DNA from: an uncultured Bifidobacteriaceae bacterium
GTDB taxonomy: Bacteria > Actinomycetota > Acidimicrobiia > IMCC26256 > PALSA-555
NCBI GenBank assembly: GCA_964532485.1
Contig: CAZHKE010000004.1
Location: forward strand, 15,501 to 79,500
Direction of reading: 5' to 3'
DNA length: 64,000 bases
Part shown: one piece after another, positions 1,755-55,728 of the stretch
Layout: each line of letters starts with the position of its first letter
Position numbering within the stretch: position 1 is the first letter of the stretch
Position numbers and translations under genes: made by a program
Notes under the pieces: model-generated
Database searches by the model: none
What the model was told of the DNA's origin: nothing
The model's input: only the letters and a program-made list of their open reading frames with translations

Positions 1755-2948
1755 TCAGCCGACGGCACCGGCGGCGCGCAACGCGTCGATCTCCGAGCTC
1801 GAGAGGCCCGACTCGTCGAGCACCTCGAGGGTGTGCTCGCCGATCTCGGGCACGCGGTCGCCCGTCGGCGCGCGCGCACCGACCTCGCGGATGGGCCACG
1901 CCGGGACGCGCACCTCGCCCCCTGGTACCAGCACGGTTCGGATCGCTCGACGGGCTCGGTGCTGGGCGACATCCGGCAGCTCGCTCGGCTCGTAGGCGGG
2001 CCCGACGGCGACGTCCGCCGCGAGGCACACCGCGACCCACTCGTCGAGCGTGCGGGTGGCGAACAGTGCCTCGAGCTCGGCGCGCAGGGCGGTGTCGTGG
2101 GTCGCGAAGTCGAACTCGATGTCTGCGCCAGCGTGCGCGGCGTCGGCCTCGGCCAGGTCGGGTCGCCCGGCCTCGCGACAGAACGCCTCGAAGAAGCGGG
2201 GCTCGATCGCGCAGAAGATCATGCGCCGGTGGTCGGAGGTCTCGTACACCGAGTACTTGGCGCGGGGCGGACCGTGCAGTGGCTCCGCATCGGTCACGTC
2301 GGCGTTCCACTCCGGCGCGCCGAGGAACTGCTGCCACACGAGGCCGGCCTCCGAGCACGACACGTCGAGCTCGGCGCCGCGGCCGGTGCGCTCGCGCCGG
2401 TACAGCGCCGCGCACACGGCCTGCACGGCGAACATCGGGCCCGCGAGCACCGAGACCGGCATCCAGCCGGGCGCGACCGCCCCCTCCGGGGTCGAGAACG
2501 CGAGCCCGGCCACGCCGTCCAGGTTCAGGCCGTGACCGGGCAAGCCGGCGAGCGGCCCGTCCCGCCCGAAGGCCGAGAGGTGCAGCACCACCTTGCCGGC
2601 GAGCGCCAGCGCGGCGCCATCGAGGCCCCACCGCTCCATCACGCCCGGTCGGCTCGACTCGAGGATCACGTCCGCGCGCGCGGCGATGCGGCCCAGCACC
2701 GGCCGAGCCGCCGCGTGCTCGAGGTCCAGGCCGACGCTGCGCTTGCCCGCGTCGAGGGTGGCGCTCAGCATGCTCATGCCGTGCACGAGGGGTGGGACCC
2801 GCCGCAGGTACGTGCCTCGGGGGTGCTCGACCCGCACGACGTCGGCGCCGAGCGCGGCGAGCGCGCCGCCCGCCGCGGCACCCGGGATCAGCTTCGCGAG
2901 GTCGAGGACGCGCACCCCGTCGAGCAGGCCACCCCCGTCCTCGTTCAA
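1755..2948 (-). CDS. CoA-transferase family III (CaiB/BaiF-like)
   Basis: Track ORF 1755..3353 was trimmed to the in-frame TTG at 2948, giving LNEDGGGLLDGVRVLDLAKLIPGAAAGGALAALGADVVRVEHP, a typical family III N-terminus. The resulting length (~397 aa) fits the family. The upstream part is low-complexity P/R-rich. The exact start is uncertain. Confidence 0.8.
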   Translation of the reverse strand: MNEDGGGLLDGVRVLDLAKLIPGAAAGGALAALGADVVRVEHPRGTYLRRVPPLVHGMSMLSATLDAGKRSVGLDLEHAAARPVLGRIAARADVILESSRPGVMERWGLDGAALALAGKVVLHLSAFGRDGPLAGLPGHGLNLDGVAGLAFSTPEGAVAPGWMPVSVLAGPMFAVQAVCAALYRRERTGRGAELDVSCSEAGLVWQQFLGAPEWNADVTDAEPLHGPPRAKYSVYETSDHRRMIFCAIEPRFFEAFCREAGRPDLAEADAAHAGADIEFDFATHDTALRAELEALFATRTLDEWVAVCLAADVAVGPAYEPSELPDVAQHRARRAIRTVLVPGGEVRVPAWPIREVGARAPTGDRVPEIGEHTLEVLDESGLSSSEIDALRAAGAVG

Positions 2949-2979
2949 CTGACCCCGCCTCGGCAGCCCAAGTCGCCAG

Positions 2980-2996
2980 ATTATTAGACTGATTCG
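2980..2996 (+). promoter_or_regulatory. Recurrent 17-nt AT-rich promoter-proximal box, site E (ATTATTAGACTGATTCG), upstream of the NMO/PaaK/fusion/CbbQ operon
   Basis: 12/17 identical to site C. Shares ACTGATTCG exactly. Lies 78 nt before ATG 3075, oriented toward the gene. Confidence 0.5.
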
Positions 2997-3074
2997 CTCG
3001 GACGGCCCTTCCGCGAGCGCTCCGGGCGACCGGTAGGTGGAGGCCGAGCGAGGAGCCCGAGGAGGCGGAGGCGG

Positions 3075-4211
3075 ATGCGGACGCGGGTGTGCGAGCTGCT
3101 CGGGATCGAGTACCCGATCCTCGCGTTCAGCCACTGCCGGGACGTCGTCGCCGCGGTCACCAACTCGGGGGGCTTCGGCGTCCTCGGTGCCACCGCGCTC
3201 ACCCCGGAGCAGCTCGAGATCGACCTCGACTGGCTCGAGGCCGAGACGCGCGGCCGCCCGTTCGGCGTCGACGTGCTGTTTCCCGCGAGCTACGTGGGGC
3301 GTGACGACGCCCTCGACGCCGCCGCGCTCGAGGCACTGATCCCGCCGGAGCACCGGCGCTTCGTCGACGACCTGCTTCGCCGCTACGACGTGCCGGACTC
3401 ACCCGGCGGCGCAGACGGCGACGGCGACGCCGGGTCTGCGCTCGCGCTCGCGCCCGACCAGCTCGACCTGCTCGTCGAGGTCTCGCTGGCGCACCGAATC
3501 CGCCTCGTCGCCAACGCGTTGGGCCCGCCACCCCCCGATCTCGCCGCCCGCGCGCATGAACGAGACGTGCTCGTGGCCGCACTGGCGGGGTCGGTCGAGC
3601 ACGCCGAGCGCAACGTGGCCGCGGGCGCCGACCTGATCGTTGCCCAGGGGACCGAGGCCGGCGGGCACACCGGCGAGATCGCCACGATGGTGCTCGTCCC
3701 CGAGGTGGTCGACGCCGTCGCGCCGGTGCCCGTGCTGGCGGCAGGCGGCATCGCACGCGGGCGTCAGATCGCGGCCGCACTCGCGCTCGGGGCGGAAGGC
3801 GTGTGGACCGGTTCGGTGTGGCTGACCACGGACGAAGCCGAGACGCACCCGGTGGTCAAGCAGAAGATGTTGGCGGCCACGTCCCGCGACACCGTCCGGT
3901 CGCGCGCGGTCACCGGCAAGCCCGCGCGCCAGCTCCGCTCCGCCTGGACCGACGAGTGGGATGGTGCCGAGTCGCCCGGCTCGCTGCCGATGCCGCTACA
4001 GCCACTCCTGACCGACGACGCGCGGCGCCGCATCGAACGGGCGGCGTACCGTGACGGCTCGGGCGCGCAACAGCTCGTCAACTACTTCGTGGGCCAGGTC
4101 GTCGGGAGCATGCAGCAGGTGATGCCGGCCCGCCGCGTCGTGGCCGAGATGGTGGAGGAGCTCGCCGACACACTGCTCGCGCTCGACGGGTACCTGGAGC
4201 ACGCCGAGTGA
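3075..4211 (+). CDS. Nitronate monooxygenase / 2-nitropropane dioxygenase family FMN oxidoreductase (FabK-like)
   Basis: 378 aa. N-terminus reads MRTRVCELLGIEYPILAFSHCRDVVAAVTNSGGFGVLG; also GTEAGGHTGEIATMVL. The ATG at 3075 is preceded by GGAGGCGGAGG. Confidence 0.85.
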   Translation: MRTRVCELLGIEYPILAFSHCRDVVAAVTNSGGFGVLGATALTPEQLEIDLDWLEAETRGRPFGVDVLFPASYVGRDDALDAAALEALIPPEHRRFVDDLLRRYDVPDSPGGADGDGDAGSALALAPDQLDLLVEVSLAHRIRLVANALGPPPPDLAARAHERDVLVAALAGSVEHAERNVAAGADLIVAQGTEAGGHTGEIATMVLVPEVVDAVAPVPVLAAGGIARGRQIAAALALGAEGVWTGSVWLTTDEAETHPVVKQKMLAATSRDTVRSRAVTGKPARQLRSAWTDEWDGAESPGSLPMPLQPLLTDDARRRIERAAYRDGSGAQQLVNYFVGQVVGSMQQVMPARRVVAEMVEELADTLLALDGYLEHAE

Positions 4212-5485
4212 GCGGGGAGGACGAGCGCGAGCTGTGGGACCCGGCTGTCCAGGCTCTGGACCCGACCGAGGTCGAGGCCCGCGCGGCCGCCGGCCTTGCC
4301 GAGACGTGGGATCGCGTGTGGGCGCTGCCGTTCTACGCCGAGCGCTACCGCGCCGCCGGTCTGTCGCCGGGGCCGATGCCCGCCCTGTCCGACATCCCGC
4401 GCGTGACCAAGAGTGACCACCGCGCCGACGAGGCCGCACACCCCCCATTCGGCCGTCACCGCGCGGTCGCACTCGAGGACGCGATCCGTGTCGGGGTGTC
4501 GACCGGCACGACCGGCGCGCCGACGTTCATCTTCTACGGGAAACGGGATCTCGACGCGATGGTGCGGGTCGGCACACGCAACAACTGGCGACTCGGGCTG
4601 CGATCCGGCGACCGGTTCACCCACAGCTGGCCGCAGTACCTGTACCCGACCTCGGCGCACGGCGGGCGCCCCTACCTCGATCTCGGCGTCCTCGAGATCC
4701 CGGTGGGCCCACCGTTCTCCCCCGAGACCGCGGCCGAGCACCTTCGCGTCTGGGAGCGGCTCCGCCCCACCGGCTTCATGATGACGGCGTCGCAGTTCCA
4801 GACCTACGAGCGTGTCGGCGACGAGATCGGCATCGACTTCGCGGCGTGCATCGAGGGCAGCCTGCTCGTGTACCTGGATCTGGCCTGCCAGTTCGAGGCG
4901 CCACGGAAGCGGATCGAAGAGGCGTACGGCGTGCGCCTGCACAACCTGTCAGGCGCATCGGAGATCCCGGCCTTCAGCGTCAACGACAGCAGGTACCACC
5001 GGGGGTTCCAGGCCGCGGGCGATCACGTCCACATCGAGGTGTGCGACCCGATCACCGGCGCGGCGCTGCCCGACGGCGCCCGGGGCCATCTCGTGGTGTC
5101 GACCTTCGGTCTCGACGCTTGCTTCCTGCGCTACGACCTCGAGGACATCGTCGTTCGTGATACCGAACCCGACCCGACCGGCGAGACCGGCCCTCGCTAT
5201 GTCCTGATCGGCCGGGGCGCCGACGCGGTGACCGTCGACGGGCGAGATCCGATCTTCCCGCTCGACGTCCAGCTCGCGCTCGATGACCACGGCGCACCGG
5301 AGTTCCAGCTCGTGCCGGACGACGACACGTCGAGGCTTCACCTTCGAGTCGAGCACGATGGCGCGACCGGCGTGCTCGAGGGTCTGCTCGAGGAGCGCCT
5401 TGGTGTCGGCACGAGCGTCCAGGCAGTGGCGCCCGGGAGCCTGCCGCGAGCGGCCTTCAAGCCCCGGCGGATCGCGGCGGCATGA
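4208..5485 (+). CDS. PaaK / coenzyme F390 synthetase-type adenylate-forming enzyme (phenylacetate-CoA ligase-like), paralog 1
   Basis: 425 aa with the motif VSTGTTGAPTFIFYG, and PaaK-like length and layout. The GTG start overlaps the upstream stop (GTGA at 4208-4211). Confidence 0.8.
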   Translation: MSGEDERELWDPAVQALDPTEVEARAAAGLAETWDRVWALPFYAERYRAAGLSPGPMPALSDIPRVTKSDHRADEAAHPPFGRHRAVALEDAIRVGVSTGTTGAPTFIFYGKRDLDAMVRVGTRNNWRLGLRSGDRFTHSWPQYLYPTSAHGGRPYLDLGVLEIPVGPPFSPETAAEHLRVWERLRPTGFMMTASQFQTYERVGDEIGIDFAACIEGSLLVYLDLACQFEAPRKRIEEAYGVRLHNLSGASEIPAFSVNDSRYHRGFQAAGDHVHIEVCDPITGAALPDGARGHLVVSTFGLDACFLRYDLEDIVVRDTEPDPTGETGPRYVLIGRGADAVTVDGRDPIFPLDVQLALDDHGAPEFQLVPDDDTSRLHLRVEHDGATGVLEGLLEERLGVGTSVQAVAPGSLPRAAFKPRRIAAA

Positions 5486-8103
5486 CGCGTCGAGTGCTCG
5501 TGACGGGTGCGAGTGGAGTCTTCGGTCGTGACATCGCGACTCGACTGGCCCGGGCGGGTGCCGACGTCGTCGCGCTGGCGCGTCGCGAGGTCAGCATCCC
5601 GGGCGTCGAGTTCGTCGCCGGCGACATCCGCGACGCCGCCATCGTCGAGCAGGCGATGAAGGGCTGCGACGCGGTTGCGCACCTTGCGTGGGCCGTGTCG
5701 CCACTCAAGAGCAGGGACGACACGCACGACGTGAACGTGGGTGGCACGCAGAACGTGCTCGACGCAATGGACGCGACCGGATGTCGCCGCGTCGTGTTCT
5801 CGTCGTCGGTCACCGCATACGGTGCGTGGCCGGACAACCCGCCGCGCCTGCGCGAGACCGATCCGCTCCGCCCCGACCCGAGGATCTTGTACGCGTGGGA
5901 CAAGGCCCGCTGCGAGGAGCTGATCCTCGAGCGCGACCTCGACGCGGTGATCAGCCGGTCGTGCCTCGTCGTCGGTCGCCACATCGACAACTACGCGTTC
6001 CGGGTCTTCGCCGCTCCGATGCTCACGGCGCCGAAGGGCGAGATGCCGCTGTGGCAGTTCGTGCACCAGGAGGATGTCGGCCGCTTCCATGCCGACGCCG
6101 TGCTGGGTGACCGCACCGGCGTCGTGAACGTGGCCTGCGACGACGGCGTGCCGCTCGAGGAGATCGCCGAGGCGTTCGGCAAGCGGCTCGTGCACGTCGA
6201 CATCGACAAGATGGCGAAGGTCGTCGAGCTCGGGTGGAAGCACGACCTGATGGAGGTCGACCCCGACAGCCTCCAGGGCTTCCAGTACATGGCGGTCGCC
6301 GACACGACGAGACTGCGCGAGGAGTGGGGGTTCGAGCCCGCGTGGAGTGGGCGTGAGGCGATGCTCGACCTCGCGCGTTCGCTGACCCGAGTCGTGTACC
6401 TGGGCTACAAGGAGGTCCGCAAGCCGTGGCGACTCCGGTACGCGCGTACCGACATCCCGCCCGCGTATCCGCCGCTCGACGGCGTCGAGCTGGTCCAGGC
6501 ATCGGCGACGGGGGTCGGCGGCGAGTTCGACAGCGTGATCGATCCCCGCTTTCCGACGTTCTTCGCCACGAACCTCTCGGAGGCGTTCCCGGGTCCGATG
6601 ACGCCGCTGTCGCTCACCGTGAGCCTCGACGTGATGCGCGCCTCGTCCGACGGGATGGCCGACTTCCTCGGGCTCGAAGGCGATGTGAAGCGCGAGCTCC
6701 AGGCGCGTGGCGCCGCGGCCTTCGGGCACCGGATGTACGCGGGAGTCTCGGTCGTCCGCACGATGGCCGAGGCGATGCCGGGCATGACGCCGGAGGACAT
6801 CGATCACCAGTTCCTCGGTCTGGCGCGGACCGAGAGCACAACGAAGCGGCGGCCCTCTGTTCGCGAGGTGGCGCAAGGCGGCCGGTTGCTGGCGCACGTC
6901 GCGCCCCAGATCGCCGGGTTCGCACGCGAGATCGAGCGGGTCCAGGCCGAGGCACGTGTCCTCTTCCCCTCACCTGACGAGCTGGTCGGCATGACCGACC
7001 CGCAGCTGCTCGCGCACGTCGGGCTGGTGCACGACGAGCTCGGCCAGGCATGGAACGTCGCGTGCATCGGCAACATGATCGCCGGCGGCGCACTCGCCGC
7101 GGCCGAGCGGGCCGGTGCCGCCAACGCGGTCAGCGCCGCTGGTGGCGACTCCCCGTTGGTCAGCGCTGGGGCGTTGCTCGCCGTCGACGAGCTCGCGCGC
7201 TTGGCTCGTGAGCAGGCGAGGATCTCGGACGTCCTCGAGCGGGGCGTCCACGAGCAGACGCTCGACGCGCTACGGGAGGTCGCACCTTGGTGGGCCGCTC
7301 GCTTCGACGATCTGCTGCGCGACTTCGGGCACCGGGGACCGGGTGAGACCGAGCTCGAGAACCCGATGTTCTCCGACCGGCCTGATCTGCTCCTCGGGAC
7401 GATCGCGAAGGCGTTGCACGCGCCCGAGCGTCCCATGAGGCCGGAGCCCCCGTCCGGCGCGCTCGGGCGGCTCGCGGCGAGTGCGGTGAGTCGCGCGATG
7501 CGCACGCGCGAGCGGGCGCGTGATGCAGTTGTGCGTCTCACGCACGCCTTGCGGCTCGCGGCGCGCGAGCGCGCGCGACGGCTTGCGGAGGCGGGGGTCA
7601 TCGCCGATCCGGCCGACGTCTTCTACCTGAGCTACGCCGAGCTGCTCCACCCGCCGGCGGGCGTGGCGACCGCAGTGCCACGCCGCCGCGACGAACGGGA
7701 GCGTCTCAGGGCACTGCGGCTCCCGACCATGTTCACGCGCACGTGGGAGCCCGAGGCGAGCGACGCAGCGCTGGTCGCTCGGGGTGACCGCCTCAGCGGG
7801 ATCGCCGCCGCTCCGGGTGTCGCACGGGGTCGTGTGCGGATCCTGCGCGAGACGGGCGACGTGATCGAGCCCGGCGATGTGCTCGTCGCAGCCATCACCG
7901 ACACCGGCTGGACGCCGTTGTTCGCGTTCGCGTCCGCGGTGGTGACGGACATCGGTGGGCTGCTCTCACACCCCACGGTGGTCGCGCGGGAGTACGGGAT
8001 CCCGTGCGTCGTCGGGGTCGGAGACGCCACGCTGCGCTTGCGAGACGAGATGCTGGTCGAGGTCGACGGCGGGGGCGGCACCGTGCGCGTGCTCGAGACA
8101 TGA
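5482..8103 (+). CDS. Fusion protein: N-terminal NAD-dependent epimerase/dehydratase (extended SDR) domain, a central RPH/PpsA-like substrate-domain-like region, and a C-terminal PEP-utilizer phosphohistidine swivel domain
   Basis: 873 aa, one uninterrupted ORF. N-terminal domain: [18 protein letters not shown] (GxxGxxG) and YAWDK (YxxxK). Middle region: [19 protein letters not shown]-terminal domain: [54 protein letters not shown] overlap with the upstream gene at 5482-5485. Confidence 0.85.
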
Positions 8104-8912
8104 GCTCAGGCGACGCGGCGGTCCGGGCGGGCGACCGGCCCTTCTACGTCTCGGTCGGTGACGAGGAGACGATCTTCAAGGCCGCGCACCGACGCGGCCT
8201 GGCGGTGCTGCTCAAGGGACCCACCGGTACGGGCAAGACGCGCTTCGTCGAGGCCATGGCGCACGATCTCGGTCGGCCGTTGATCACCGTCGCATGCCAC
8301 GAGGACCTGACCGCGGCTGATCTCGTCGGCCGGTTCCTGTTGGAGGGGGGCGACACGGTCTGGGTCGACGGGCCGCTCACGCGCGCGGTGCGAGAGGGTG
8401 GGATCTGCTACCTCGACGAGGTGGTCGAGGCCCGCCAGGACACCACGGTCGTGCTGCACCCGCTGGCCGACCACCGCCGCGTGCTCGTGCTCGAGCGCCT
8501 CGGCGAGACGCTGGTCGCGCCGGATGGGTTCGGGCTGGTCGTGTCGTACAACCCGGGGTACCAGAGCGTGCTCAAGGACCTGAAGGACTCGACGCGCCAA
8601 CGGATGGTCGCGATCGAGCTCGGCTTCCCGCCCTCCGACGTGGAGGAGAAGGTGGTCGCGCACGAGGCAGGCGTGGACTCCGTGGTGGCGGCCGACCTCG
8701 TGCGGCTGGCGCAGGCCATCCGGCGCCTCGATCACTCGGGCCTGCGCGAGGTCGCGTCGACGCGGGTGCTGATCTCCGCCGGTCAGCTCGTCGTGGACGG
8801 GATCCCCGCACGTGCGGCGGCGCGCGCGGCGATCGCTGCACCGCTCACCGACGATCCCGGGCTCGCCGCCGGCCTGGCAGAGCTGGTGGACGCGTACCTC
8901 TCACCGGGGTGA
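8100..8912 (+). CDS. CbbQ/NirQ/NorQ/GpvN-family MoxR-class AAA+ ATPase
   Basis: Track ORF 8004..8912 was trimmed to ATG 8100, which overlaps the upstream stop (ATGA). Sequence reads [54 protein letters not shown] (Walker A) and [12 protein letters not shown] (Walker B). Length ~270 aa. Confidence 0.85.
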
Positions 8913-8935
8913 CGACGCGCGGCCGGCCGTGGCGC

Positions 8936-9880
8936 TCACGGCGTCGCGGCGCTCTGGCCGTCGCGGGCGGGGAGGCCGAGGCGGGACCGCACCTCGGCGG
9001 CGGTCGCGGGCTCGAGGCCGTGCGCCGACACGAGGTCGGCGGCACGCCGCGTGAGCTCGCCGTTCGTCGCCTCCGGGAAGGCATCGGGGCAGTCGCCGAT
9101 GCCGACACGCAGCCCCTGGCCCCGGTCGAGCGCCGCCCGCCACAACGTCTCGCACACCCCGGCGTCGTAGATCGCGTACGGGACCACGACGCCCTCGTAG
9201 TCGACGTCGTCGGGAACCTGGGCGACGTACGCGTCGAGCCCCGCGACGGTCGGGAACGGCCCGCTGGCCCAGCGCTCGGAGAGGAACCACTTCATGAGCA
9301 GCGGTGGCTCGAGGATGCCGGCCCAGAGCGCGTGCACCGAGTAGCGCAGGTAGGTGACGTCGAAGATGCCGAGCGTGGGGTGCAAGCCCCGAGCGCGCGC
9401 CTGAGCGAGCACCCACTCGAGCTCGTCGGGCGCGTTGATCGCGACCTGGTGATCTGCGGGCAGGAGGTCGAGCGGGGCGAATGTGCGGCGGTCACGATCC
9501 CAGAGCGTGACGTTGCGTGAGCCGATGTCGAGCGGCGCCAGCTCGAGCGGGGCACTCGACGGAGCGTCCGCGAGCGACCACACGTGGCGGTAGCGCTCTT
9601 CGCGCCGCACCCGAGGCGGATAGGTCGGGTAGCACAACAGGTCGCACTCCGCCGCGATGAGCTGCATGGCGGCTCGATAGACACCGTCATCGAGCCACAC
9701 CTGCGCGCCGTCGGGGTCTCTCGCGTGGAAATGCACGATCGACGCGCCGGCATGCGCGGCCTCGACCGCGGCCGCCGCGACCTCGTCCGGCCCGTACGGC
9801 ACGTGCGGGTTCTGGCCCTTCGACGCCGTCTCGTTGAGTCCGACCTCGATGATCGCCCTGCCGCGCTCGGCGAGTCGCAC
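8936..9880 (-). CDS. Beta-keto acid cleavage enzyme (BKACE / DUF849, 3-keto-5-aminohexanoate cleavage enzyme family), paralog 1
   Basis: Only the C-terminal 314 codons of track ORF 8936..10783 are kept, from the in-frame GTG at 9880. Sequence: RAIIEVGLNETASKGQNPHVPYGPDEVAAAAVEAAHAGASIVHFHARDPDG. The upstream part of the track ORF is an out-of-frame read through livF. Confidence 0.85.
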   Translation of the reverse strand: MRLAERGRAIIEVGLNETASKGQNPHVPYGPDEVAAAAVEAAHAGASIVHFHARDPDGAQVWLDDGVYRAAMQLIAAECDLLCYPTYPPRVRREERYRHVWSLADAPSSAPLELAPLDIGSRNVTLWDRDRRTFAPLDLLPADHQVAINAPDELEWVLAQARARGLHPTLGIFDVTYLRYSVHALWAGILEPPLLMKWFLSERWASGPFPTVAGLDAYVAQVPDDVDYEGVVVPYAIYDAGVCETLWRAALDRGQGLRVGIGDCPDAFPEATNGELTRRAADLVSAHGLEPATAAEVRSRLGLPARDGQSAATP

Positions 9881-10590: not shown

Positions 10591-13388
10591 GACCTCGGCC
10601 CGGGAGTCGTGGCGACGCTCGCACCGTCGCCGCCGGGAGGACGATCCTCGTCAACCGGTTCGCCGAGGTAGGCGGAGATGACCGCGGGGTCGTCGCGGAT
10701 CTCGTCGGGTGTGCCGACGGCGATCGTGCGGCCGAAGTCGAGCGCCATGATTCGGTCGCAGATCGACAGGACGAGGCCCACATCGTGCTCGACGAGCAGG
10801 ATCGCGATGCCCCAGTCGTCGGCGAGTCGTCGGATCAGCTCGCCGAGCTCGGCGGTCTCGTCGTCGTCGAGACCGGCGGCGGGCTCGTCGAGCAACAGCA
10901 CCGACGCGTGCGTAGCAACCGCGCGCGCGATCCCGACGAGGCGCCGGCGCCCGAACGAAAGCTCGCCCGGACGGCGGTCGAGCTCCGACTCGAGATCGAA
11001 CTCGTCGACCGCAGCGATGGCGCTGGGCGAGAGGAGAGGGTCGCCGGGCCGGACCAGGTCGGTGAGATAGGCGAGCGGGTCGCGCGGATCCGACGCGGTG
11101 CGCAGGTTGTCGCGCACCGACATGTCATCGAACAGCTCGAGTGACTGGAACGACCGGGTGAGGCCGAGCCGCGCACGACGACGAGCGTTCAGCTCGGTGA
11201 TCGGCTCGTCGTCGAGCAGCACGTGGCCGTACCGGTGGCGCACGAAGCCGGTCGCGGCGTCGATGAGCGTCGTCTTCCCCGCGCCGTTGGGCCCGATCAG
11301 GCCGACGACCTCGCCCGGGTGCACGATGATGCTGGCGTCCTGAAGGGCGACCACCCCTCCGAAGTTCACCGTGAGCTCGCGCACCTCGAACGTCTTCGGC
11401 GTGACGCGCTCGCGGTCCACCTTGGGAAGGGCGGCGGGTGCGTCCGGCGCCTCACGGCGGTCGAGGCGGAGCCGGCGCGCGGCTGCGCGCAGCTGGCGGG
11501 CGTTCTGGGACGCGAGACCGTTGGGGTCCTGGAGCAGGATCACGATCAGGCCGAACCCGCCCACGATCTGGAACAGGTTCGCGACATCCTCACCGAGCAC
11601 GTTCTCGAGGATCTTGGGGCCCAGCGTGCCGATCGCCAGCATCGACCCGAACAATGGGCCGATCACGAACCCGACGCCGCCGATGACCGCGTAGACGACC
11701 GCGTTGATCGACTGCTCGACGCCGTAGCTCTCGCTGTAGACGATGGTGGTCGTGGTGAACGCGAGCAGCACCCCGGCGAGCGCGGCGATCGCGGCGCCGA
11801 ACGCGAACCCGTAGAGCTTGGCCCCGAAGACGCTGATGCCGAGCGAGGCTGCGGCACGCTCGTTGGTCCGCACGGCGACCATGCGCCGGCCGGCGCGTCC
11901 CCGGCGCAGGTTCGCGACCAGCATCATCACCAGCGCGAGGAGGACGACGCAGACCGTCGCGTAGCGCTCGACGTGGTTCACGCGGTCGATCGGCCAGCCG
12001 AACAGCGTCGGCGGGTCGACGATCAGCCCGGCGTCGAGCCCGCCCTCGGTCGTGAGCTCGACGTTGCGAAGGATGAGGTACTCGATCGCGACCGCCATCC
12101 CCATCGTGGCGACCGCGAGGTTCACCCCGCGGGTTCGCAGCGCCGGCAGGGCGACGATCAAGCCGACCGGGATGGTGCAGAGCACCCCGAGCACCAGCGC
12201 GAGCTCGAACGACATGCCGAGCTCGTGCGCGGCCTGACCCGCGAACCAGGCGCCCATCCCGGCGAGCGCGAACTGGGCGATCGACAGCTGTCCGGTGTAC
12301 CCGGTGACGACGACGAGCGACAGGGCGACGAGCGCGACGACCACCGTCGTGATCAGCGCGTCGGTCCACGAGTCGTCGAAGACGACCCAGATGAGCCCGA
12401 GGGCCGCCGCCACCGTGGCCGCGACGGGCAACGGACGGATCCGCCCGGAGCCGAGCTCGGGGAGCTTGGCCGATGCTTCGCCGCGCACGGGCAAGGCGCG
12501 CCCGCGGGCGACCAGCGTCAGGACGATCACGAGGAACGGCACCGCCCGCGCGAGCCCGGTGGTGCGGATGACGGCGGGCAGAGCGTCGGGCTCACCCGCG
12601 AGGTAGCTCATCTCCGCGGACAGGACGCCGATCAGGAGCGCGCCGAAGAAGGTGAGCGGGAACGACGTGAAGTTGCCGATGAGAGCGGCCGCCAGCGCCG
12701 GGATCACGAGCAGCGACAGGTCGAGCACGAGCAGCCCCGGGCCACCGGCGATGGGCGCCAGGAGGATCGCGGCGAGGCCGGCGAGCAGACCGCCGAGGAA
12801 CCAGTTGACCGCGGCGACGATGTTGGGGGAGCGGCCGAGCGCGGCTGTGGCGCGCTCGTTCTCGGCGACTGCGGAGGTGGCGAGGCCGAACGTCGAGTAG
12901 CGGTAGACGACGGTGAGCACCACGGTGAGGGCGGCGGCGATCCCGAGCAGGAGGAACCGGTCGACGCCGATGCCGTTGCCCTGCTCGAACAGGCCGAACA
13001 CGTTCTCCGAGGTCTGGGGCAGGAGCGAGACCGCGAGCCGGAACTCGGAGCCGAAGAGCTCCAGCCCCACGCCGATGAGCCCCGCGAAGAGGCCGAGGGT
13101 GGCGATGATCTTGGCGAGCCCGGTGGCTTGGCGCAGGCCTCGCATCACGAGCTGCATCCCGAGACCGATCAACGCGGGGACACCGAGCCCGACGATCAGC
13201 GCGAGCTTGTAGTCGACGCCGTCCTGGTCCTTGAGCTGGTAGAAGAGCTCGGCGCCCATCATCCCCATGGCGCCGCTCGCGAAGTTCAGGACGCCCGAGC
13301 CGCGGTAGACGAGCACAATGCCCTGTGCCGCCATCGCGTAGATCGCGCCGGCTCCGAGGCCGATGAGCGCGAACTGGAGGACCTTCAT
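10587..13388 (-). CDS. Single-polypeptide fusion of LivH-like permease, LivM-like permease and LivG-like ABC ATPase
   Basis: 933 aa. N-terminus MKVLQFALIGLGAGAIYAMAAQGIVLVYRGSGVLNFASGA (LivH-like). The centre holds many TM segments including GYTGQLSIAQFALAGMGAWFAG (LivM-like). The C-terminus has FEVRELTVNFGGVVALQDASIIVHPGEVVGLIGPNGAGKTTLID, LSFGRRRLVGIARA and VLLLDEPAAGL. Confidence 0.9.
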   Translation of the reverse strand: MKVLQFALIGLGAGAIYAMAAQGIVLVYRGSGVLNFASGAMGMMGAELFYQLKDQDGVDYKLALIVGLGVPALIGLGMQLVMRGLRQATGLAKIIATLGLFAGLIGVGLELFGSEFRLAVSLLPQTSENVFGLFEQGNGIGVDRFLLLGIAAALTVVLTVVYRYSTFGLATSAVAENERATAALGRSPNIVAAVNWFLGGLLAGLAAILLAPIAGGPGLLVLDLSLLVIPALAAALIGNFTSFPLTFFGALLIGVLSAEMSYLAGEPDALPAVIRTTGLARAVPFLVIVLTLVARGRALPVRGEASAKLPELGSGRIRPLPVAATVAAALGLIWVVFDDSWTDALITTVVVALVALSLVVVTGYTGQLSIAQFALAGMGAWFAGQAAHELGMSFELALVLGVLCTIPVGLIVALPALRTRGVNLAVATMGMAVAIEYLILRNVELTTEGGLDAGLIVDPPTLFGWPIDRVNHVERYATVCVVLLALVMMLVANLRRGRAGRRMVAVRTNERAAASLGISVFGAKLYGFAFGAAIAALAGVLLAFTTTTIVYSESYGVEQSINAVVYAVIGGVGFVIGPLFGSMLAIGTLGPKILENVLGEDVANLFQIVGGFGLIVILLQDPNGLASQNARQLRAAARRLRLDRREAPDAPAALPKVDRERVTPKTFEVRELTVNFGGVVALQDASIIVHPGEVVGLIGPNGAGKTTLIDAATGFVRHRYGHVLLDDEPITELNARRRARLGLTRSFQSLELFDDMSVRDNLRTASDPRDPLAYLTDLVRPGDPLLSPSAIAAVDEFDLESELDRRPGELSFGRRRLVGIARAVATHASVLLLDEPAAGLDDDETAELGELIRRLADDWGIAILLVEHDVGLVLSICDRIMALDFGRTIAVGTPDEIRDDPAVISAYLGEPVDEDRPPGGDGASVATTPGPRS

Positions 13389-13433
13389 CGGCGTGATTCC
13401 CTCTGCACCTGCATCGTGCCGGGCCGAGCAGCG

Positions 13434-13463
13434 GCGCGGGCCGGTGGGGTGGCCGGCCCGCGC
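13434..13463 (-). terminator. Intercistronic GC-rich hairpin between the binding-protein gene and the permease fusion (attenuator / mRNA-stabilising stem-loop)
   Basis: A perfect 11-bp stem, GCGCGGGCCGG (13434..13444) paired with CCGGCCCGCGC (13453..13463), and an 8-nt loop. There is no U-tract. Confidence 0.6.
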
Positions 13464-13472
13464 GTCGTCTGC

Positions 13473-14684
13473 CTACGCCTCGAGGAAGTTGTGGGCCTTG
13501 CTCCCGATCGCCTGGATCTTCCCGTTCTTGACCTTCGCGTAGTACACGTCGGTGGTGAAGGCCCGGCTGAGCGCCGCGATCAGCCCTCCGGCGGCGGTGA
13601 TCTCGGGCGGCTGCTGGCTGAAGTTGACCGGCGGGCCGACCCTCGTGTCCCACACCTTGTCCTGGTTGAGCTGAGCCACGAGCGTGGCGGCGTCCGTCGC
13701 GGGCTGCCCCTCGAGCGCGTCCGCGACCAAGTGCACGCCGGCCCACGACTCGATCGACGGGTCGACCAGGCGAATGTCCTTGTCGTAGGCGTTGATCTCC
13801 TTGAGCATCGCCTTGACGCCGGCGTCGTTCTTCAGCGACGCGGGCTTGAAGTTCGTCGAGACGAGCAGACCCTCGGCGAGGTCACCGAGCGTGTCGACGT
13901 TCGAAGGGTTGACGGTGCTGCCGGGTGCGGCGATCTTCGCCTTGCCGCCCGACTGGCGGTACGCCACCAGCCACTTCGAGAACTCCGGGTCGGTGAGCGC
14001 GAGCGCGATTCCCTCCGGGTCGTTGTCGCTGGTCTGCTGGACGCTCGGCTGGAGGTCGGCTCCGCCGACGGGCACCGGGGTCTGGGACGCGTCGGGTGCG
14101 CCCCTCGACTCGAGCCCGTAGTTCGCGAAGTCGGCGGCGAGCTTGCCGACCCCGCCGGGGAGATCGAGGTACGCGACGTCCACCTTGTCGGCGCCCTGGT
14201 CGGCGAGGATCGCACCCATGCCGCCGGTGCCGCCGATCGCCGTCGCGCCGATCGGGAAGGAGAGCGGGTTCGTGAGCTCGTCGTTCGAGATCCCGTAGTC
14301 GGCGACGCTCGGGATGCCGGCTTCGGTGAGCGGCTCGAAGTAGTCGTCGGTCACGAACGCCCCGACGATGGCGACGACGCCCTCGTCGACGGCCTCGCGT
14401 GCGCACTCGAGCGGCTTGTTCGGGTCGATGCCGGTGTTGCAGACGATGATCTTCACCGGTTGCCCGTTGATCCCGTCCTTCTTGTTGAGAGCCGCGGCCG
14501 CGGCCTTCGCCGCGTCGGGGATGTCGTTGAAGTCGAGCCCTGAACCCTCGAAGCTCCCCATCACCATGAGCTTGACGGGATCGCCGCTGGGCTTGTGGTC
14601 GACCCGAGCCTGCGCGCCCGAGGCGCCGACTCCCACCAGACCGGCGACCAGAGCGCCGATCACCAGTACACGAGCGTGTCGCAC
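13473..14684 (-). CDS. ABC transporter substrate-binding protein (Leu/Ile/Val-binding, type I periplasmic binding fold)
   Basis: Track ORF 13473..15161 was trimmed to the in-frame GTG at 14684, which is preceded by a G-rich Shine-Dalgarno (GGGGGGAGG, 4 nt upstream). The signal/anchor-like N-terminus is VRHARVLVIGALVAGLVGVGASGAQA, followed by KLMVMGSFEGSGLDF...GINGQPVKIIVCNTG. Confidence 0.85.
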   Translation of the reverse strand: MRHARVLVIGALVAGLVGVGASGAQARVDHKPSGDPVKLMVMGSFEGSGLDFNDIPDAAKAAAAALNKKDGINGQPVKIIVCNTGIDPNKPLECAREAVDEGVVAIVGAFVTDDYFEPLTEAGIPSVADYGISNDELTNPLSFPIGATAIGGTGGMGAILADQGADKVDVAYLDLPGGVGKLAADFANYGLESRGAPDASQTPVPVGGADLQPSVQQTSDNDPEGIALALTDPEFSKWLVAYRQSGGKAKIAAPGSTVNPSNVDTLGDLAEGLLVSTNFKPASLKNDAGVKAMLKEINAYDKDIRLVDPSIESWAGVHLVADALEGQPATDAATLVAQLNQDKVWDTRVGPPVNFSQQPPEITAAGGLIAALSRAFTTDVYYAKVKNGKIQAIGSKAHNFLEA

Positions 14685-14865: not shown

Positions 14866-15942
14866 TCACCGGGGTGCCCCGCCTCCGGGCGGCACGGCCT
14901 GGGAGTGGGGGAGCGGGATCGGGATCTCGGGGCCGTTGCACGCGTACCTCGTTCCCGGCCCGCACATCTCGTTCTGGAGGTAGCTCGGGAACCCGGCCGG
15001 CTGCTTGTCGTTGTGGAGCACGAACGCCTGGAACGCGATGTTGTACGTGAGCATCGCGACATTCGCGAAGCCGATGATCGCGAGGACGCGCAGCGGGGTG
15101 CGCCACCGCACGGCTCGTACGCGGTCGACACCCCGCTCCACGACGGAACGACCCTTGTCATCCCGGAAGTACTTCAGCGCGCCCATCGCGGTCCACATCA
15201 TCGGCCAGAGCACGGCTTCGTAGATCGGGAACTGGTATCGCTGCCCGCCCCAGATCGAGAGGCCGTGGACGGTTCCCGAGTAGGCGTACAGCTCCGTGCG
15301 CACCCAGATCAGCTCCGCGAGCAGGTCGAGACCGACCATGACGACCCACGCGCTGGCGATCAACCCGACGTTGCCGAGCCCGGGCCAGCGACGCTTCGCG
15401 CGCCGCATCACCCAGAATGTGAGGAGGCTCGCGCCCGGACCGAGCCAGAAGTACAGCGAGCCCACGAACGCGATGGGCTCGGGCAGCAGTGTGCCGTTCG
15501 GCGACATCCAGCCCGGGATGTGCTCCGTCCAGGAGCCGACGTTGAGGAAGTGCGAGTTGTAGTAGAAGCCCGTCCGGACGTAGTTGATGATCGGGTCTTG
15601 CCAGTACACGGCCACCCACGCGATGACGAGCATCGCGTCGAAGCTCAGCCGTCGCTCCCGCAATGACTGGCGGACGACGATCGCGACGATGAGCACCGCA
15701 GCCGCGACCGAGAGGATCTGGAACCCGTTGAGCCAGATCTCGGTTGCCCCGGTCAGCGGGTCGACCCCGGGCAGCGTGCGTGTCGCGTCGCCGCTCGCGA
15801 TCCACGACGTGTAGATGTAGACCTGCAGCGCGACGAAGCCGGCGCCGATCACGGCCCACCACAGCACCGGTCGGGCCTTGCGTCCCTCGAGCGAGATCGC
15901 GCCCGGTGCCGCCGCCTGACGCGTCACGGTGTCGGTCGTCAT
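14866..15942 (-). CDS. Polytopic membrane protein, possibly AveC (spirocyclase)/DUF5135-like. The function call is tentative.
   Basis: Only the last 358 codons of track ORF 14866..17766 are kept, from ATG 15942. There are several hydrophobic segments (PVLWWAVIGAGFVALQVYIYTSW, ILSVAAAVLIVAIVV, MLVIAWVAVYWQDPIINY). The remaining 608 upstream codons are antisense to real plus-strand genes. Confidence 0.7.
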   Translation of the reverse strand: MTTDTVTRQAAAPGAISLEGRKARPVLWWAVIGAGFVALQVYIYTSWIASGDATRTLPGVDPLTGATEIWLNGFQILSVAAAVLIVAIVVRQSLRERRLSFDAMLVIAWVAVYWQDPIINYVRTGFYYNSHFLNVGSWTEHIPGWMSPNGTLLPEPIAFVGSLYFWLGPGASLLTFWVMRRAKRRWPGLGNVGLIASAWVVMVGLDLLAELIWVRTELYAYSGTVHGLSIWGGQRYQFPIYEAVLWPMMWTAMGALKYFRDDKGRSVVERGVDRVRAVRWRTPLRVLAIIGFANVAMLTYNIAFQAFVLHNDKQPAGFPSYLQNEMCGPGTRYACNGPEIPIPLPHSQAVPPGGGAPR

Positions 15943-18229: not shown

Positions 18230-19384
18230 ATGGAGGGCGGCGAGGCACTCGACCGGGCGGTCGAGGAGGCGATCGCAGGCGGCGGCCTGCCCGGCGAGGG
18301 CGAGATGTTCGACGTGGAGGCCGCGCCGCTCGGCCCGGTGATCGCTCTCGACGTGCTGTCGCGGCGGGTCCCGAAGGCGGAGCTGCACCTGCACCTCGAG
18401 GGCGCGATCCCGGCATCGACGCTGCGCCGCCTCGCGGCCGAGCACGACGTCGAGCTGCCCGGTTCCCCCGCACCCGGGTCGGCCTTCGACTACCGGGGCT
18501 TCGCCAAGTTCGCCGCCGACCTCGCCCGTGCCGGCGAGGTCCTCCGCGAGCCGTCCGACGTCACCGACGCCACGCTCGACGTGCTGGCGCGCGAAGTCGA
18601 CGCGGGGTGTCGCCACGTGGAGGTCATGGTGACCCTCGGCTTCCACGTGGAGCGCGGCTGGGACCCGTTCGACTTCCTGCGCGCGCTGGACGTGGCGTTC
18701 GAGTCCGCGCGTGACCGCTGGGATCTCAGCGGCGGCGTGATCGTCGAGTTCGACCGTGCCGCCGGGGGCGAGGTCGCCGCTCGCATCGCCGAGATCGCCG
18801 GCGACGCGGCCGACCGCGGCCTGCCGGTGGTGGGTGTCGGCAACAGCGGCGACCCGCTGTCGGTGCCGTTCGCCGCGCTCGCGCCGGGCTATGAGGCCGC
18901 ACGCGCCCGCGGCTTGCGCCTCTGCGGGCATGTCGACATGCCCGACGACGTCGAGCCGGCGCTCGACTTCGGCCTCGACCGGATCGACCACGGCTACAGC
19001 GCCTTGTTCGATCACGACCTGCTCGCCCGCGTCGTCGAGCAGCAGATCCCACTCACGTTGTGCCTCACGAGCAACGTCATGCAGATGCCCGGGATCTTTC
19101 CCGATTTCGATGCACACCCCGTCGTGGGGTTGGCGGCAGCAGGTGCTCGCTGCACGTTCCACACCGACGACCCGCCCTACTTCTTCACCGACATCGCCCA
19201 GGAATACCGAGTGGCCGCGCGCACCCTGGGTTGGGGCCCGGAGGATCTCGTCGCCGCGGCGCGCGCTTCACTCGAGGCTGCGTGGCTCCCGACCGACGTG
19301 CGCCCCGAACGCCTGCGAAGCTTCGACGCCGAGCTCGTCGCCTTGCTCGCCGACCCGCGATGGAGCGCCGGCGGACCGGGTTAG
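18230..19384 (+). CDS. Adenosine/AMP-deaminase-family metallohydrolase (divergent)
   Basis: 384 aa. KAELHLHLEGAI (metal-binding HxH), DRIDHG and FHTDDPPYF are present. The canonical HAGE segment is replaced by CGHVDMPDD. Confidence 0.75.
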   Translation: MEGGEALDRAVEEAIAGGGLPGEGEMFDVEAAPLGPVIALDVLSRRVPKAELHLHLEGAIPASTLRRLAAEHDVELPGSPAPGSAFDYRGFAKFAADLARAGEVLREPSDVTDATLDVLAREVDAGCRHVEVMVTLGFHVERGWDPFDFLRALDVAFESARDRWDLSGGVIVEFDRAAGGEVAARIAEIAGDAADRGLPVVGVGNSGDPLSVPFAALAPGYEAARARGLRLCGHVDMPDDVEPALDFGLDRIDHGYSALFDHDLLARVVEQQIPLTLCLTSNVMQMPGIFPDFDAHPVVGLAAAGARCTFHTDDPPYFFTDIAQEYRVAARTLGWGPEDLVAAARASLEAAWLPTDVRPERLRSFDAELVALLADPRWSAGGPG

Positions 19385-31077: not shown

Positions 31078-32006
31078 GGGGACGCGGTCAAGCGGGCGAT
31101 GAGCGTCTCCACGAAGTGATCGTGGTCGAAGCCGGTGCACAGGTCGATATCGGCGGGTGCTCCGGTGGTGCCCCAGTGGTCGATCACGAGGGCGCCGCGG
31201 GTCAGCTCACCGAGGCACTCCACGTCGGCCGCGACGCGACGCCAGCTGGCATGGTCAGGTCGGAGCGCTGCAGCCATGGCCACCGGATCGGGGAGGTCCA
31301 TGGCGCCAGGGAGATGGTTCGACGACACGAACTCGAAGTAGCGGCGGGTCACGTCGGCGGCGAACTTCGCGACCGGGTCAGATGACGCGCGCAGACGATC
31401 GACATCGGCAGCGGTGACAACGGCATCGCGTCGCGAGACGTCCCAGCCGACGACGCGCAGCGGGAGTCCCGAGCGGAGCACGATCCGAGCCGCTTCCGCG
31501 TCGCACCAGAAGTTGTACTCCGCGGCGGGCGTGACGTTTCCGACTCCGTCGCCGGCGCCGCCCATGACCACGACCTGCCCGACGCGTCGGCAGGTGTCCG
31601 CGTCGACATCGATCGCGTGTGCGAGGTTGGTCAGCGGGCCGAGGGCGACGTAGGTCAGCGTCGATCCGTGTTCGCGAAAGAGCGCGAGCGTCGCGTCGAG
31701 CGCGGCATCGGGATGCTCGGCGCCGACGGGATCGAAGTCGTGGCCACCGAGGCCGTCGTGCCCGTGGACGCTCTCGGCGCGTTCGAAGCCCTCCGCAGCG
31801 AGGCTCTCGGATGCTCCGCGGTGCACCGGCACGTCGAGCCGGCCCGCGACGCTGAGCGTCTTCAGCGCGTTGCGTGTCGCCTGGTCGACGTCGACGTTGC
31901 CCGCGACGGTCGTGAGTGCGACAACTTCGGTTCCCGGGGTGCGCAGGGCCAGGAGGATCGCGACCGCGTCGTCGGCGCCCGGGTCGGTATCGACGAGCAG
32001 CTTCAC
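31074..32006 (-). CDS. Nucleoside hydrolase (inosine-uridine preferring, IUNH family), copy 1
   Basis: 310 aa. N-terminal Ca/ribose-binding motif KLLVDTDPGADDAVAILLAL, and GPLTNLA. GTG start at 32006. Confidence 0.9.
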   Translation of the reverse strand: MKLLVDTDPGADDAVAILLALRTPGTEVVALTTVAGNVDVDQATRNALKTLSVAGRLDVPVHRGASESLAAEGFERAESVHGHDGLGGHDFDPVGAEHPDAALDATLALFREHGSTLTYVALGPLTNLAHAIDVDADTCRRVGQVVVMGGAGDGVGNVTPAAEYNFWCDAEAARIVLRSGLPLRVVGWDVSRRDAVVTAADVDRLRASSDPVAKFAADVTRRYFEFVSSNHLPGAMDLPDPVAMAAALRPDHASWRRVAADVECLGELTRGALVIDHWGTTGAPADIDLCTGFDHDHFVETLIARLTASP

Positions 32007-49288: not shown

Positions 49289-49304
49289 GGGCTCTCGCAC
49301 TCCT

Positions 49305-51400: not shown

Positions 51401-51419
51401 GGGAGCTCTCCTCGGGTGA

Positions 51420-52325: not shown

Positions 52326-52330
52326 CGGCG

Positions 52331-55710: not shown

Positions 55711-55728
55711 GCGCTAGAGAGTGTGCCG

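Follow-up and report, generated by a model that had tools for sequence, protein, structure and literature searches.

Rifampin phosphotransferase (RPH)-like dikinases work with three stations: an ATP-grasp domain, a swivel histidine and a substrate-binding domain. The family of the Mycobacterium tuberculosis protein Rv2047c keeps the last two, and in the place of the first it has an active-looking dehydrogenase. Here we describe a member of this family encoded in a predicted four-gene operon, at positions 3075 to 8912 of a 64-kb stretch of DNA from a soil member of the Acidimicrobiia (contig CAZHKE010000004.1, ~70% G+C; the window in the following). Besides this fusion protein the operon encodes a flavoenzyme, an acid-coenzyme A (CoA) ligase and a NorQ/CbbQ-type ATPase, and comparison with related genomes suggests that the two halves of a NorQ/NorD-type chaperone are split over two paralogues of the fusion.

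In RPH an Arg-Glu dyad was shown by mutagenesis to be essential for the second phosphotransfer, from phosphohistidine to rifampin (PMC4844700). HpeHI, CreHI and PpsAB are two-component RPH homologues encoded by adjacent genes, in which the H subunit comprises the substrate and swivel domains and the I subunit the ATP-grasp domain (PMC12167813). HpeH is active only with the separate ATP-grasp protein, yet alone it shuttles phosphate slowly from product to substrate (PMC12167813). The signature T/SxxGGxxxH has been given for HpeH, RPH and phosphoenolpyruvate (PEP) synthase (PMC12167813).

Rv2047c consists of an N-terminal epimerase and C-terminal PEP-utilising domains and is without assigned function (PMC7058343). 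Its gene stands in an operon with pks12, and the protein was proposed to reduce and phosphorylate mycoketide (PMC2443190, PMC7058343). In a transposon sequencing (TnSeq) study VadK (Rv1127c), pks12 and Rv2047c were more strongly required at high mycobactin (PMC7058343). VadK has only ATP-grasp and His domains and autophosphorylates; its assigned role is regulation of the methylcitrate cycle (PMC13400623). This regulatory role weakens PpdK/Rv1127c as the obvious partner of Rv2047c and leaves it as a lead only.

AAA+ proteins of the MoxR class hydrolyse ATP for remodelling, not for phosphoryl transfer, and the H2-insert motif GRxLL/IxxxxT binds the finger of NorD (PMC13036017). The clients of MoxR-VWA pairs described so far are cNOR and Rubisco (PMC13036017), CO dehydrogenase (PMC12657314) and fumarate reductase (PMC10585395).

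The families of all domains discussed below are already known, and for the fusion architecture there are both an NCBIfam model and a named member in mycobacteria. What is new is an RPH/HpeH-type phosphotransferase in which a dehydrogenase replaces ATP-grasp and which, in a catabolic setting, is linked to a split NorQ/NorD-type chaperone; we found none described. A preliminary description of the operon, made from the DNA letters alone, could not map the gene combination to any characterised pathway, and our literature search likewise found no pathway matching the set.

Four overlapping genes

The four genes called in this region are the following (nt, nucleotides; aa, amino acids; FMN, flavin mononucleotide; NMO, nitronate monooxygenase):

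3075-4211, plus strand: gene 1, NMO/FabK-family FMN-dependent oxidoreductase, 378 aa, Pfam NMO match over full length
4208-5485, plus strand: gene 2, PaaK-clade adenylate-forming acid-CoA ligase, 425 aa, assigned by PDB matches
5482-8103, plus strand: gene 3, Rv2047c-family three-domain fusion, 873 aa, assigned by NF004520
8100-8912, plus strand: gene 4, NorQ/CbbQ-type MoxR AAA+ ATPase, 270 aa, Pfam AAA_5 and CbbQ_C

Frame analysis of third-position G+C content (GC3) favoured coding on the plus strand for all four open reading frames. The junctions read GTGA (4208-4211), ATGA (5482-5485) and ATGA (8100-8103). Independent gene calls on an identical 15.8-kb Logan contig (L099) yielded the same 378-, 425-, 873- and 270-aa products with the same 4-nt overlaps. 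At a related locus with 88-90% identity (L016) the gene calls show 4-nt overlaps at the first two junctions as well; the call after the fusion, truncated by the contig end, begins 4 nt before the fusion ends. Such overlaps support co-transcription but are not exceptional, since 8 of the 31 same-strand neighbouring pairs in the window overlap in the same way. The overlaps, the independent gene calls and a single conserved upstream box identify the four genes as one predicted operon.

The coupled reading frames and the single operon of the preliminary description were thus confirmed, and the motifs that it quoted (STGTTGAPTF, GGLLSH...IPCVVG, GPTGTGKT and ICYLDEV) were all found. The profile scans that it had called for detected NMO, Epimerase, PEP-utilizers, AAA_5 and CbbQ_C; the ligase had no Pfam match.

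The fusion protein combines a dehydrogenase with the second half of a dikinase

The three domains predicted in gene 3 are:

5482-6426, plus strand: domain 1, extended GalE/3β-HSD-type short-chain dehydrogenase/reductase (SDR), residues 1 to ~315 (Pfam Epimerase 3.6e-27, 3Beta_HSD 2.8e-15)
6427-7791, plus strand: domain 2, RPH-type helical substrate-binding domain, residues ~316-770 (alignment to RPH)
7792-8100, plus strand: domain 3, phosphohistidine swivel domain (Pfam PEP-utilizers 1.7e-21)

The Pfam spans are residues 5-203 for the Epimerase-type SDR and 795-865 for PEP-utilizers; a weak match to NAD_binding_4 (thioester-reductase type, 7.7e-4) was also seen. Over practically its whole length (residues 4-872 on 2-838) the fusion matches NF004520 (PRK05865, 'sugar epimerase family protein', 854 positions) at 2.3e-156. 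We take this model to have been built on Rv2047c, from the matching length of 854 aa. The architecture of SDR, Rph-type and swivel domains is therefore not without precedent but that of a catalogued family. The score of 522 bits lies below the 1509-bit equivalog cutoff, so the fusion is not an orthologue of Rv2047c. The settings also differ: Rv2047c, with its proposed biosynthetic role, belongs to the pks12 operon, whereas the fusion lies in a catabolic island together with the NMO-like, PaaK-like and CbbQ-like genes. The Rv2047c-type enzyme family is widespread in Actinomycetota (267 matches at E <= 1e-10) and uncharacterised so far; genomes often carry several paralogues, and four are in or next to the window.

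Residue conservation was assessed in 49 homologues, down to 39% identity. In the SDR domain, with the motifs GASGVFG (5506-5526), SSSV (5800-5811) and YAWDK (5890-5904), the residues S109, which is the Ser of SSSV, Y137 and K141 are invariant. The motif GHRGPGETE (7327-7353) of the substrate domain is conserved; of the pair Arg676-Glu677 (codons 7507-7512), E677 is invariant and R676 is at least 90% conserved. A profile-to-RPH alignment (1.4e-49) placed GHRGPGETE on GMRCAGEID of RPH, and R676-E677-x-x-R680 on R666-E667-x-x-K670. The swivel motif, T822-x-x-G-G-x-x-x-H830 (T822-D-I-G-G-L-L-S-H830, 7945-7971), matches the published signature, and its His830 (codon 7969-7971) is invariant. The C-terminal 190 residues of the fusion are colinear with the Listeria rifampin phosphotransferase (RPH-Lm).

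The AlphaFold2 model built on the 49 homologues was confident (predicted local distance difference test, pLDDT, 89.3; predicted template modelling score, pTM, 0.92). In a Foldseek search of the PDB with this model RPH-Lm came first (5fbu, 2.6e-20, ~606 aligned columns; 5fbt also matched), followed by GalE-type extended SDRs (~330 columns, template modelling score ~0.75 on the target). The SDR, the RPH substrate domain and the swivel domain account for all 873 residues and so leave no room for an ATP-grasp domain. A cryptic ATP-grasp domain was ruled out by the Pfam and NCBIfam scans, the model and the Foldseek search; PPDK_N was found neither in the fusion nor among the 120 homologues listed, which have Epimerase and PEP-utilizers and in most cases also the newer Pfam family PF27448 (Rph_4th). 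The preliminary description had recognised a swivel protein without ATP-grasp and had proposed structure prediction as a check; the model bears it out.

The closest structural relative is thus RPH-Lm (5FBS/5FBT/5FBU, 5HV1), with which the fusion shares the rifampin-binding-type domain, the swivel His and the Arg-Glu-x-x-Lys/Arg motif. The N-terminal ATP-grasp domain of RPH (residues ~1-314), however, is replaced in the fusion by the extended SDR, so the first half-reaction, from ATP to His, cannot occur in cis. Residues ~315-873 correspond to HpeH/PpsA, and for this part the analogy with split PEP-synthase-like systems such as phenylphosphate synthase, drawn already in the preliminary description, is apt (PMC12167813). 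HpeHI, CreHI and PpsAB act on phenols and have no SDR domain, and their ATP-grasp gene is adjacent, whereas PPDK_N was absent from all 57 genes called and scanned in the window and from the precomputed Pfam lists of ~10 related neighbourhoods. With its catalytic inventory intact and the RPH dyad aligned, the fusion looks like a working dehydrogenase joined to a working second half of a dikinase, competent as judged by its conserved residues.

Conservation of the neighbourhood

The operon is flanked by two genes:

1755-2948, minus strand: family III CoA-transferase, divergent, sharing an intergenic region with the operon (Pfam CoA_transf_3 5.2e-73)
8936-9880, minus strand: β-keto acid cleavage enzyme (BKACE), convergent, 23 nt from the stop codon of gene 4 (Pfam BKACE 5.3e-47)

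A search of genome contigs with the single protein gave only four full-length relatives, and a metagenome search with an alignment returned mostly other RPH-like proteins together with ~10 full-length fusions; statements on co-occurrence rest on ~20 loci. The nearest genomes are uncultured Acidimicrobiia. The full arrangement, in which a divergent family III CoA-transferase gene is followed by the NMO, PaaK-like, fusion and CbbQ genes and then by a convergent BKACE gene and a LIV-type ABC transporter, was found in L001/L015, L002/L004 and L016 at 74-93% identity. The CoA-transferase gene keeps its divergent position in L001, L002, L016 and L011, and the BKACE gene its convergent position in L001, L002 and L008. 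At the last of these loci, with 55% identity, NMO, fusion, CbbQ and the convergent BKACE are kept, and the PaaK-like gene is absent from the operon. Conservation of the neighbourhood, which the preliminary description had proposed as a check, was thus found, with the NMO-fusion-CbbQ core persisting to 55% identity.

The PaaK-like homologue of L008 lies ~57 kb off on the same contig, surrounded by genes for an SDR, a P450, an amidohydrolase, two Ldi-family proteins, an APH kinase and acyl-CoA dehydrogenases. An Amycolatopsis homologue is in a β-oxidation-type cluster without a swivel neighbour. By this distribution the PaaK-like gene is a facultative member of the NMO-fusion-CbbQ set.

In all these genomes a paralogue of the fusion, fusionB, which is ~50% identical to the operon-borne protein (fusionA), is encoded 6-8 kb upstream. 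In the same organism it is located just outside the window:

L011/L099 1842-4460 (~0.9-3.5 kb left of window position 1): fusionB, 872 aa, ~50% identical to the fusion

A FadD-type AMP-binding gene is convergent to fusionB and flanks it in every close relative; its 5′ part is the minus-strand segment 3-716 of the window.

Genes of a probable NorQ/NorD-type chaperone are split over two fusion paralogues

Gene 4 matched NorQ (9qhd, 5.8e-91, residues 10-266 on 10-266), CbbQ (6l1q, 3e-86), both over its full length, and the Pfam families AAA_5 (6.9e-36) and CbbQ_C (5.6e-28), in agreement with its earlier assignment to the MoxR class. The ATG at 8100 gives it a NorQ-like length. Walker A (GPTGTGKT, 8217-8240), the H2-insert (8328-8357) and Walker B (ICYLDEV, 8403-8423) are all present, and the H2-insert fits the motif that binds the NorD finger (PMC13036017). 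These features mark the predicted product as a bona fide NorQ/CbbQ remodelling ATPase and not a phosphoryl donor.

A tblastn search found no NorD-like VWA gene in the window; the corresponding region of the genome lies beyond the window and L099. In relatives (L008, L003 and L015) the extended cluster encodes a NorD-like protein of 575-590 aa, with VWA_2 and VWA_CoxE matches under the gathering scores and a match of 7e-35 to NorD (9qhd_G). In L008 the VWA gene overlaps the start of fusionB by 16 nt, and in L003 it overlaps by 4 nt a fusion gene whose identity (~47%) places it with fusionB. The window, L016, L001 and L008 have the order fusionA-CbbQ in common (55-88% identity), and in the window, L016 and L008 the two genes are joined by an overlap or a 1-nt gap. 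CbbQ is thus tied to fusionA and VWA to fusionB, so that each half of a NorQ/NorD-type pair is physically linked to one fusion paralogue. This split, the most informative of the new observations, suggests a new client for the chaperone.

The likeness to the NorQ/NorD and CbbQ/CbbO pairs extends to Walker A and B, GRxLLxxxxT and CbbQ_C of gene 4 and to the NorD-like VWA protein in the relatives' extended cluster. In contrast to those systems, the chaperone genes are split, with the VWA gene outside the window, and no nitric-oxide reductase or Rubisco gene accompanies them: neither NorB/NorC nor RbcL/CbbL-type domains were detected among the scanned window genes.

The flavoenzyme and the ligase

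Gene 1, preceded by a GAGGAGG resembling a ribosome binding site upstream of its ATG, belongs to the FMN TIM-barrel enzymes of the FabK/nitronate monooxygenase family. It matched Pfam NMO over its full length (1.6e-56), as expected from the preliminary description, and FabK enoyl-ACP (acyl carrier protein) reductases were its best PDB matches (3e-44). However, the FabK model TIGR03151 scored 182.5 bits, below its 453-bit equivalog cutoff, and the NCBIfam and PDB matches fell into two stretches, the best starting from residue ~124-130.

Gene 2 is a short ANL-superfamily enzyme. It aligned end to end with 2-hydroxyisobutyryl-CoA synthetase (HCL; PDB 6hdw, 9e-30, residues 9-422 on 33-470), also matched a PaaK structure (2y4o, 1.7e-21), and has both the P-loop STGTTGAPTF (aa 98-107, 4499-4528), by which it had been recognised as a PaaK/F390-synthetase-type adenylase, and the C-terminal catalytic Lys in FKPRR (5456-5470). 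Its P-loop, however, has Ala where PaaK and HCL have Lys/Arg, and the scores with the PaaK models TIGR02155 (89 bits, cutoff 646) and NF041878 (79.5 bits, cutoff 700) fall short of the equivalog level. The enzyme can be placed, on these scores, only in the wider PaaK/HCL/F390-synthetase clade.

A proposed mechanism

We propose that the fusion serves catabolism by combining redox and phosphotransfer steps, that it is charged in trans, and that the NorQ/NorD-like pair services both fusion paralogues. We give this composite reading a probability of roughly 40%; its chemistry, substrate, reaction direction, trans donor and chaperone client are given here as we infer them. The PaaK-clade ligase would turn an organic acid into a CoA thioester. 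The NMO/FabK-like flavoenzyme and the SDR domain would do redox chemistry on the same substrate, the former by enoyl reduction and the latter by hydroxyl/keto interconversion. The SDR step would be NAD(P)-dependent and coupled to phosphoryl transfer from His830: the phosphohistidine, placed by Arg676/Glu677, would pass its phosphate to a hydroxyl or enol of this substrate, where it would serve as a leaving group or a handle. His830 would be charged in trans by a donor outside the operon, likeliest an unlinked ATP-grasp protein of the HpeI/PpsB/VadK type. NorQ/CbbQ and the NorD-like VWA protein would act as a remodelling chaperone or activase for both fusion paralogues and would not supply phosphate.

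Several observations weigh against this proposal. The trans donor is purely inferred, because neither the window nor the neighbourhoods examined yielded an ATP-grasp gene, complete genomes being outside the search; VadK, one of the models for it, has been given another role, in regulating the methylcitrate cycle (PMC13400623). No substrate can be named. The absence of the ligase gene from the L008 operon means that the ligase step may not be tied to the fusion. The link between CbbQ and the fusion was seen in one clade only (five Acidimicrobiia-type loci, plus L003 for the VWA gene), and in L015, the closest relative with data, the VWA gene is ~5 kb upstream of fusionB and not adjacent. The client of CbbQ could instead be the convergent, Zn-dependent BKACE.

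The distant members of the family also speak against it. Fusions that are no more than 47% identical, from Mycolicibacterium, Nocardia, Sporichthya and soil metagenomes, are without CbbQ, NMO and ligase. At seven loci such a fusion has, adjoining it or within a few kb, a gene for a ~330-aa protein without Pfam or PDB sequence match; members are located as follows:

L010: 6977-7981
L012: 6932-7915 and 831-1859
L013: 12153-13148
L014: 10670-11680
L019: ~12645-13649
L020: ~12697-13653

The model of this family (pLDDT 86) is an AttH/CrtC-like double β-barrel, similar to a putative AttH, the Diels-Alderases Fsa2/Phm7 and kievitone hydratase. The β-barrel fold rules the protein out as a missing ATP-grasp subunit. 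No homologue was found in the window, and hhalign detected no relation to the DUF7065 protein of the window. Around the distant fusions are genes for acyl-CoA dehydrogenases, MaoC hydratases, thiolase/DUF35 pairs, P450s, Ldi-family proteins and TetR regulators, contexts indicative of lipid- or terpenoid-type catabolism.

Alternative explanations

The four products could be independent enzymes of an ordinary catabolic operon, acting on successive intermediates, with the CbbQ/NorD-like pair maturing some other enzyme such as BKACE or a metalloenzyme encoded elsewhere. Overlapping junctions are common in the window, as noted above, and BKACE is convergent to CbbQ in every CbbQ locus with enough downstream sequence (L001, L002 and L008). 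BKACE is a metalloenzyme, and metal insertion or the maturation of metal centres is what NorQD and CoxD, as characterised systems, are there for. The ~5-kb distance of the VWA gene from fusionB in L015 fits this explanation as well. However, CbbQ (window, L016 and L008) and VWA (L008 and L003) are each tightly joined to a fusion gene, whereas BKACE is on the opposite strand, and we regard independent action as rather unlikely.

Alternatively, the fusion could be an ATP-independent phosphotransferase or phosphomutase, in which the swivel His shuttles phosphate that enters with a metabolite phosphorylated by kinases of the island. Two such kinases are encoded in the window:

718-1686: PfkB, 322 aa, ATG at 718
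55723-56919: small-molecule kinase of the EcKL/APH type

APH-type kinases recur in related loci, the neighbourhoods are consistently without ATP-grasp genes, and HpeH alone moves phosphate, from 4-phosphoacetophenone to acetovanillone, without an ATP-grasp partner (PMC12167813). Against this, HpeH alone works at a very low rate (2.7 nmol/min/mg), in neither L016 nor L008 is PfkB adjacent, linkage between kinases and fusions is not tight, and no phosphorylated substrate can be proposed. Taken together, these points make an ATP-independent enzyme decidedly unlikely.

According to the preliminary description the four products might form one ATP-dependent machine that activates a small molecule; the PaaK-like enzyme or CbbQ would then supply the ATP chemistry of the missing ATP-grasp domain. 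A PaaK-like gene does accompany an ATP-grasp-less swivel protein twice in the window, in the operon (4208-5485/5482-8103) and in a second, paralogous module at 47567-53128 on the minus strand:

52331-53128, minus strand: enoyl-CoA hydratase
51420-52325, minus strand: BKACE2, 42% identical to the BKACE at 8936-9880
50159-51400, minus strand: PaaK-like ligase 2, P-loop STGTTGRPTF, 32% identical to gene 2
49305-50162, minus strand: DUF7065 protein
47567-49300, minus strand: RPH-like substrate and swivel protein, 577 aa, without SDR or ATP-grasp

This repeated association of a PaaK-like ligase, a swivel protein and BKACE is the best evidence for cooperation between ligase and swivel, and the lack of an ATP-grasp gene nearby and the FadD-type AMP-binding gene beside fusionB point the same way. 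It is outweighed by L008, which keeps NMO-fusion-CbbQ with the PaaK-like homologue ~57 kb away in a P450/Ldi/acyl-CoA dehydrogenase context, and by the other RPH-like loci examined: the 80 from metagenomes that fall outside this clade all lacked a PaaK-like gene, and other close PaaK-like homologues stand without a swivel neighbour in β-oxidation-type contexts. Moreover, gene 2 aligns end to end with a true CoA ligase, C-terminal Lys included, and to our knowledge no ANL enzyme has been described that phosphorylates a swivel His. MoxR AAA+ proteins, for their part, remodel and do not transfer phosphoryl groups (PMC13036017). With CbbQ a remodelling ATPase, the PaaK-like gene facultative and no ATP-grasp gene at hand, the single machine was not borne out and seems very unlikely.

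A biosynthetic role like that proposed for Rv2047c, with reductive release of an acyl chain and phosphorylation of the alcohol to an alkyl-phosphate lipid, would agree with the shared architecture, the pks12 operon and proposed mycoketide chemistry of Rv2047c (PMC2443190, PMC7058343) and the weak NAD_binding_4 match, but is most improbable, as the fusion is no Rv2047c orthologue (522 bits against the cutoff of 1509), the 64-kb window contains no PKS, NRPS or glycosyltransferase, and the setting, with several paralogues per genome, is overwhelmingly one of catabolism.

To a specialist the surprising features of the fusion would be the missing ATP-grasp domain beside intact phosphotransfer residues, and the link to a chaperone. 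If the pairing of fusion and chaperone in the trans-charged redox/phosphotransfer proposal is true, it would extend the client range of MoxR-VWA pairs beyond the handful described so far. In a bolder combination, which we consider unlikely, a soluble phosphohistidine swivel enzyme would have become a new class of client for a NorQ/NorD-type MoxR-VWA machine, and Rv2047c-family fusions would at the same time be charged non-canonically; the charging agent could be an adenylate-forming ligase, a metabolite that carries phosphate, or a VadK-like orphan ATP-grasp protein shared among them. Were it true, it would represent a new way to couple redox chemistry and phosphoryl activation of hydroxyls in lipid/terpenoid catabolism. 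Solving the fusion would give the charging route of its His, the function of Rv2047c and possibly a new activation chemistry in lipid/terpenoid degradation.

A conserved box upstream of the operon

The divergent intergenic region of 126 nt between the CoA-transferase gene and gene 1 contains a conserved element:

2970-2996, plus strand: putative promoter/operator box, AAGTCGCCAGATTATTAGACTGATTCG

In the four orthologous loci compared (window, L016, L001 and L002) this stretch of ~27 nt reads AAGTCG[C/T]CA[G/T]ATTATTAGACTGATTC; except for the two variable positions it is invariant, and the flanks diverge. The 17-nt box at 2980-2996 noted in the preliminary description lies within it and is thus real, but it is not shared inside the window as had been claimed: no second copy was found there at up to 3 mismatches, and the 11-mer core gave only a chance-level match. 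In L002 a gene-sized insertion of ~1.5 kb (5985-7500) separates the CoA-transferase gene from the box. Since the box stays on the NMO side despite the insertion, it seems to serve the NMO operon. The actinobacterial -10 pattern is TANNNT, and TAGACT at 2985-2990 fits it. A sigma-70 consensus scan of 2700-9300 found no promoter, and an intrinsic terminator scan of the same region gave a single terminator-like site, within chance. No Rfam family matched in a scan of the whole window, which argues against a riboswitch in the 5′ untranslated region of the operon. We interpret the box as a probable promoter or operator.

Other features of the window

The island around the operon is large and rich in genes for P450s, acyl-CoA dehydrogenases, enoyl-CoA hydratases, CoA ligases, transferases and two BKACEs. 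Another relative of the fusion is encoded near the second paralogous module:

53307-54950, plus strand: SDR-less version of the fusion, likewise without ATP-grasp, 547 aa, 50% identical to fusion residues 325-868

The adjacency of a DUF7065 gene and a swivel gene, in this order, was also seen in a metagenome locus (L035). The most likely start of PfkB is the ATG at 718, which matches independent gene calls, rather than that of the longest frame (337/397). The AMP-binding gene on the minus strand starts almost immediately beside it (ATG 716-714).

Nucleoside-type enzyme families are unusually frequent at 18230-43162, inside the lipid/CoA catabolic island, and PfkB (718-1686) can be counted with them:

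18230-19384: adenosine-deaminase-like protein
28571-29737 and 29821-31077: two AdoHcy-hydrolase paralogues
31074-32006 and 42176-43162: two IU-nucleoside hydrolases
32349-32801 and 40998-41507: two cytidine-deaminase-like proteins
37235-38422: PNP_UDP_1 phosphorylase-like protein
41518-42144: UPRTase

In L012 and L017 genes for IU_nuc_hydro, Ldi and adenine deaminase flank fusions or ligase homologues. The Ldi (linalool dehydratase/isomerase) family recurs near fusions and PaaK-like homologues, at 38415-40262 (minus strand) in the window, at 12669-14576 in L012 and at 10547-14397 in L017. This recurrence and the AttH/CrtC-like partner of the distant fusions hint at terpenoid alkene/alcohol chemistry. 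An AveC-like protein of the 'spirocyclase' family (14866-15867, minus strand, 1.6e-56) has the LIV-type ABC transporter on one side and an SDR on the other; L001 and L002 have kept it, and it is odd for a catabolic context.

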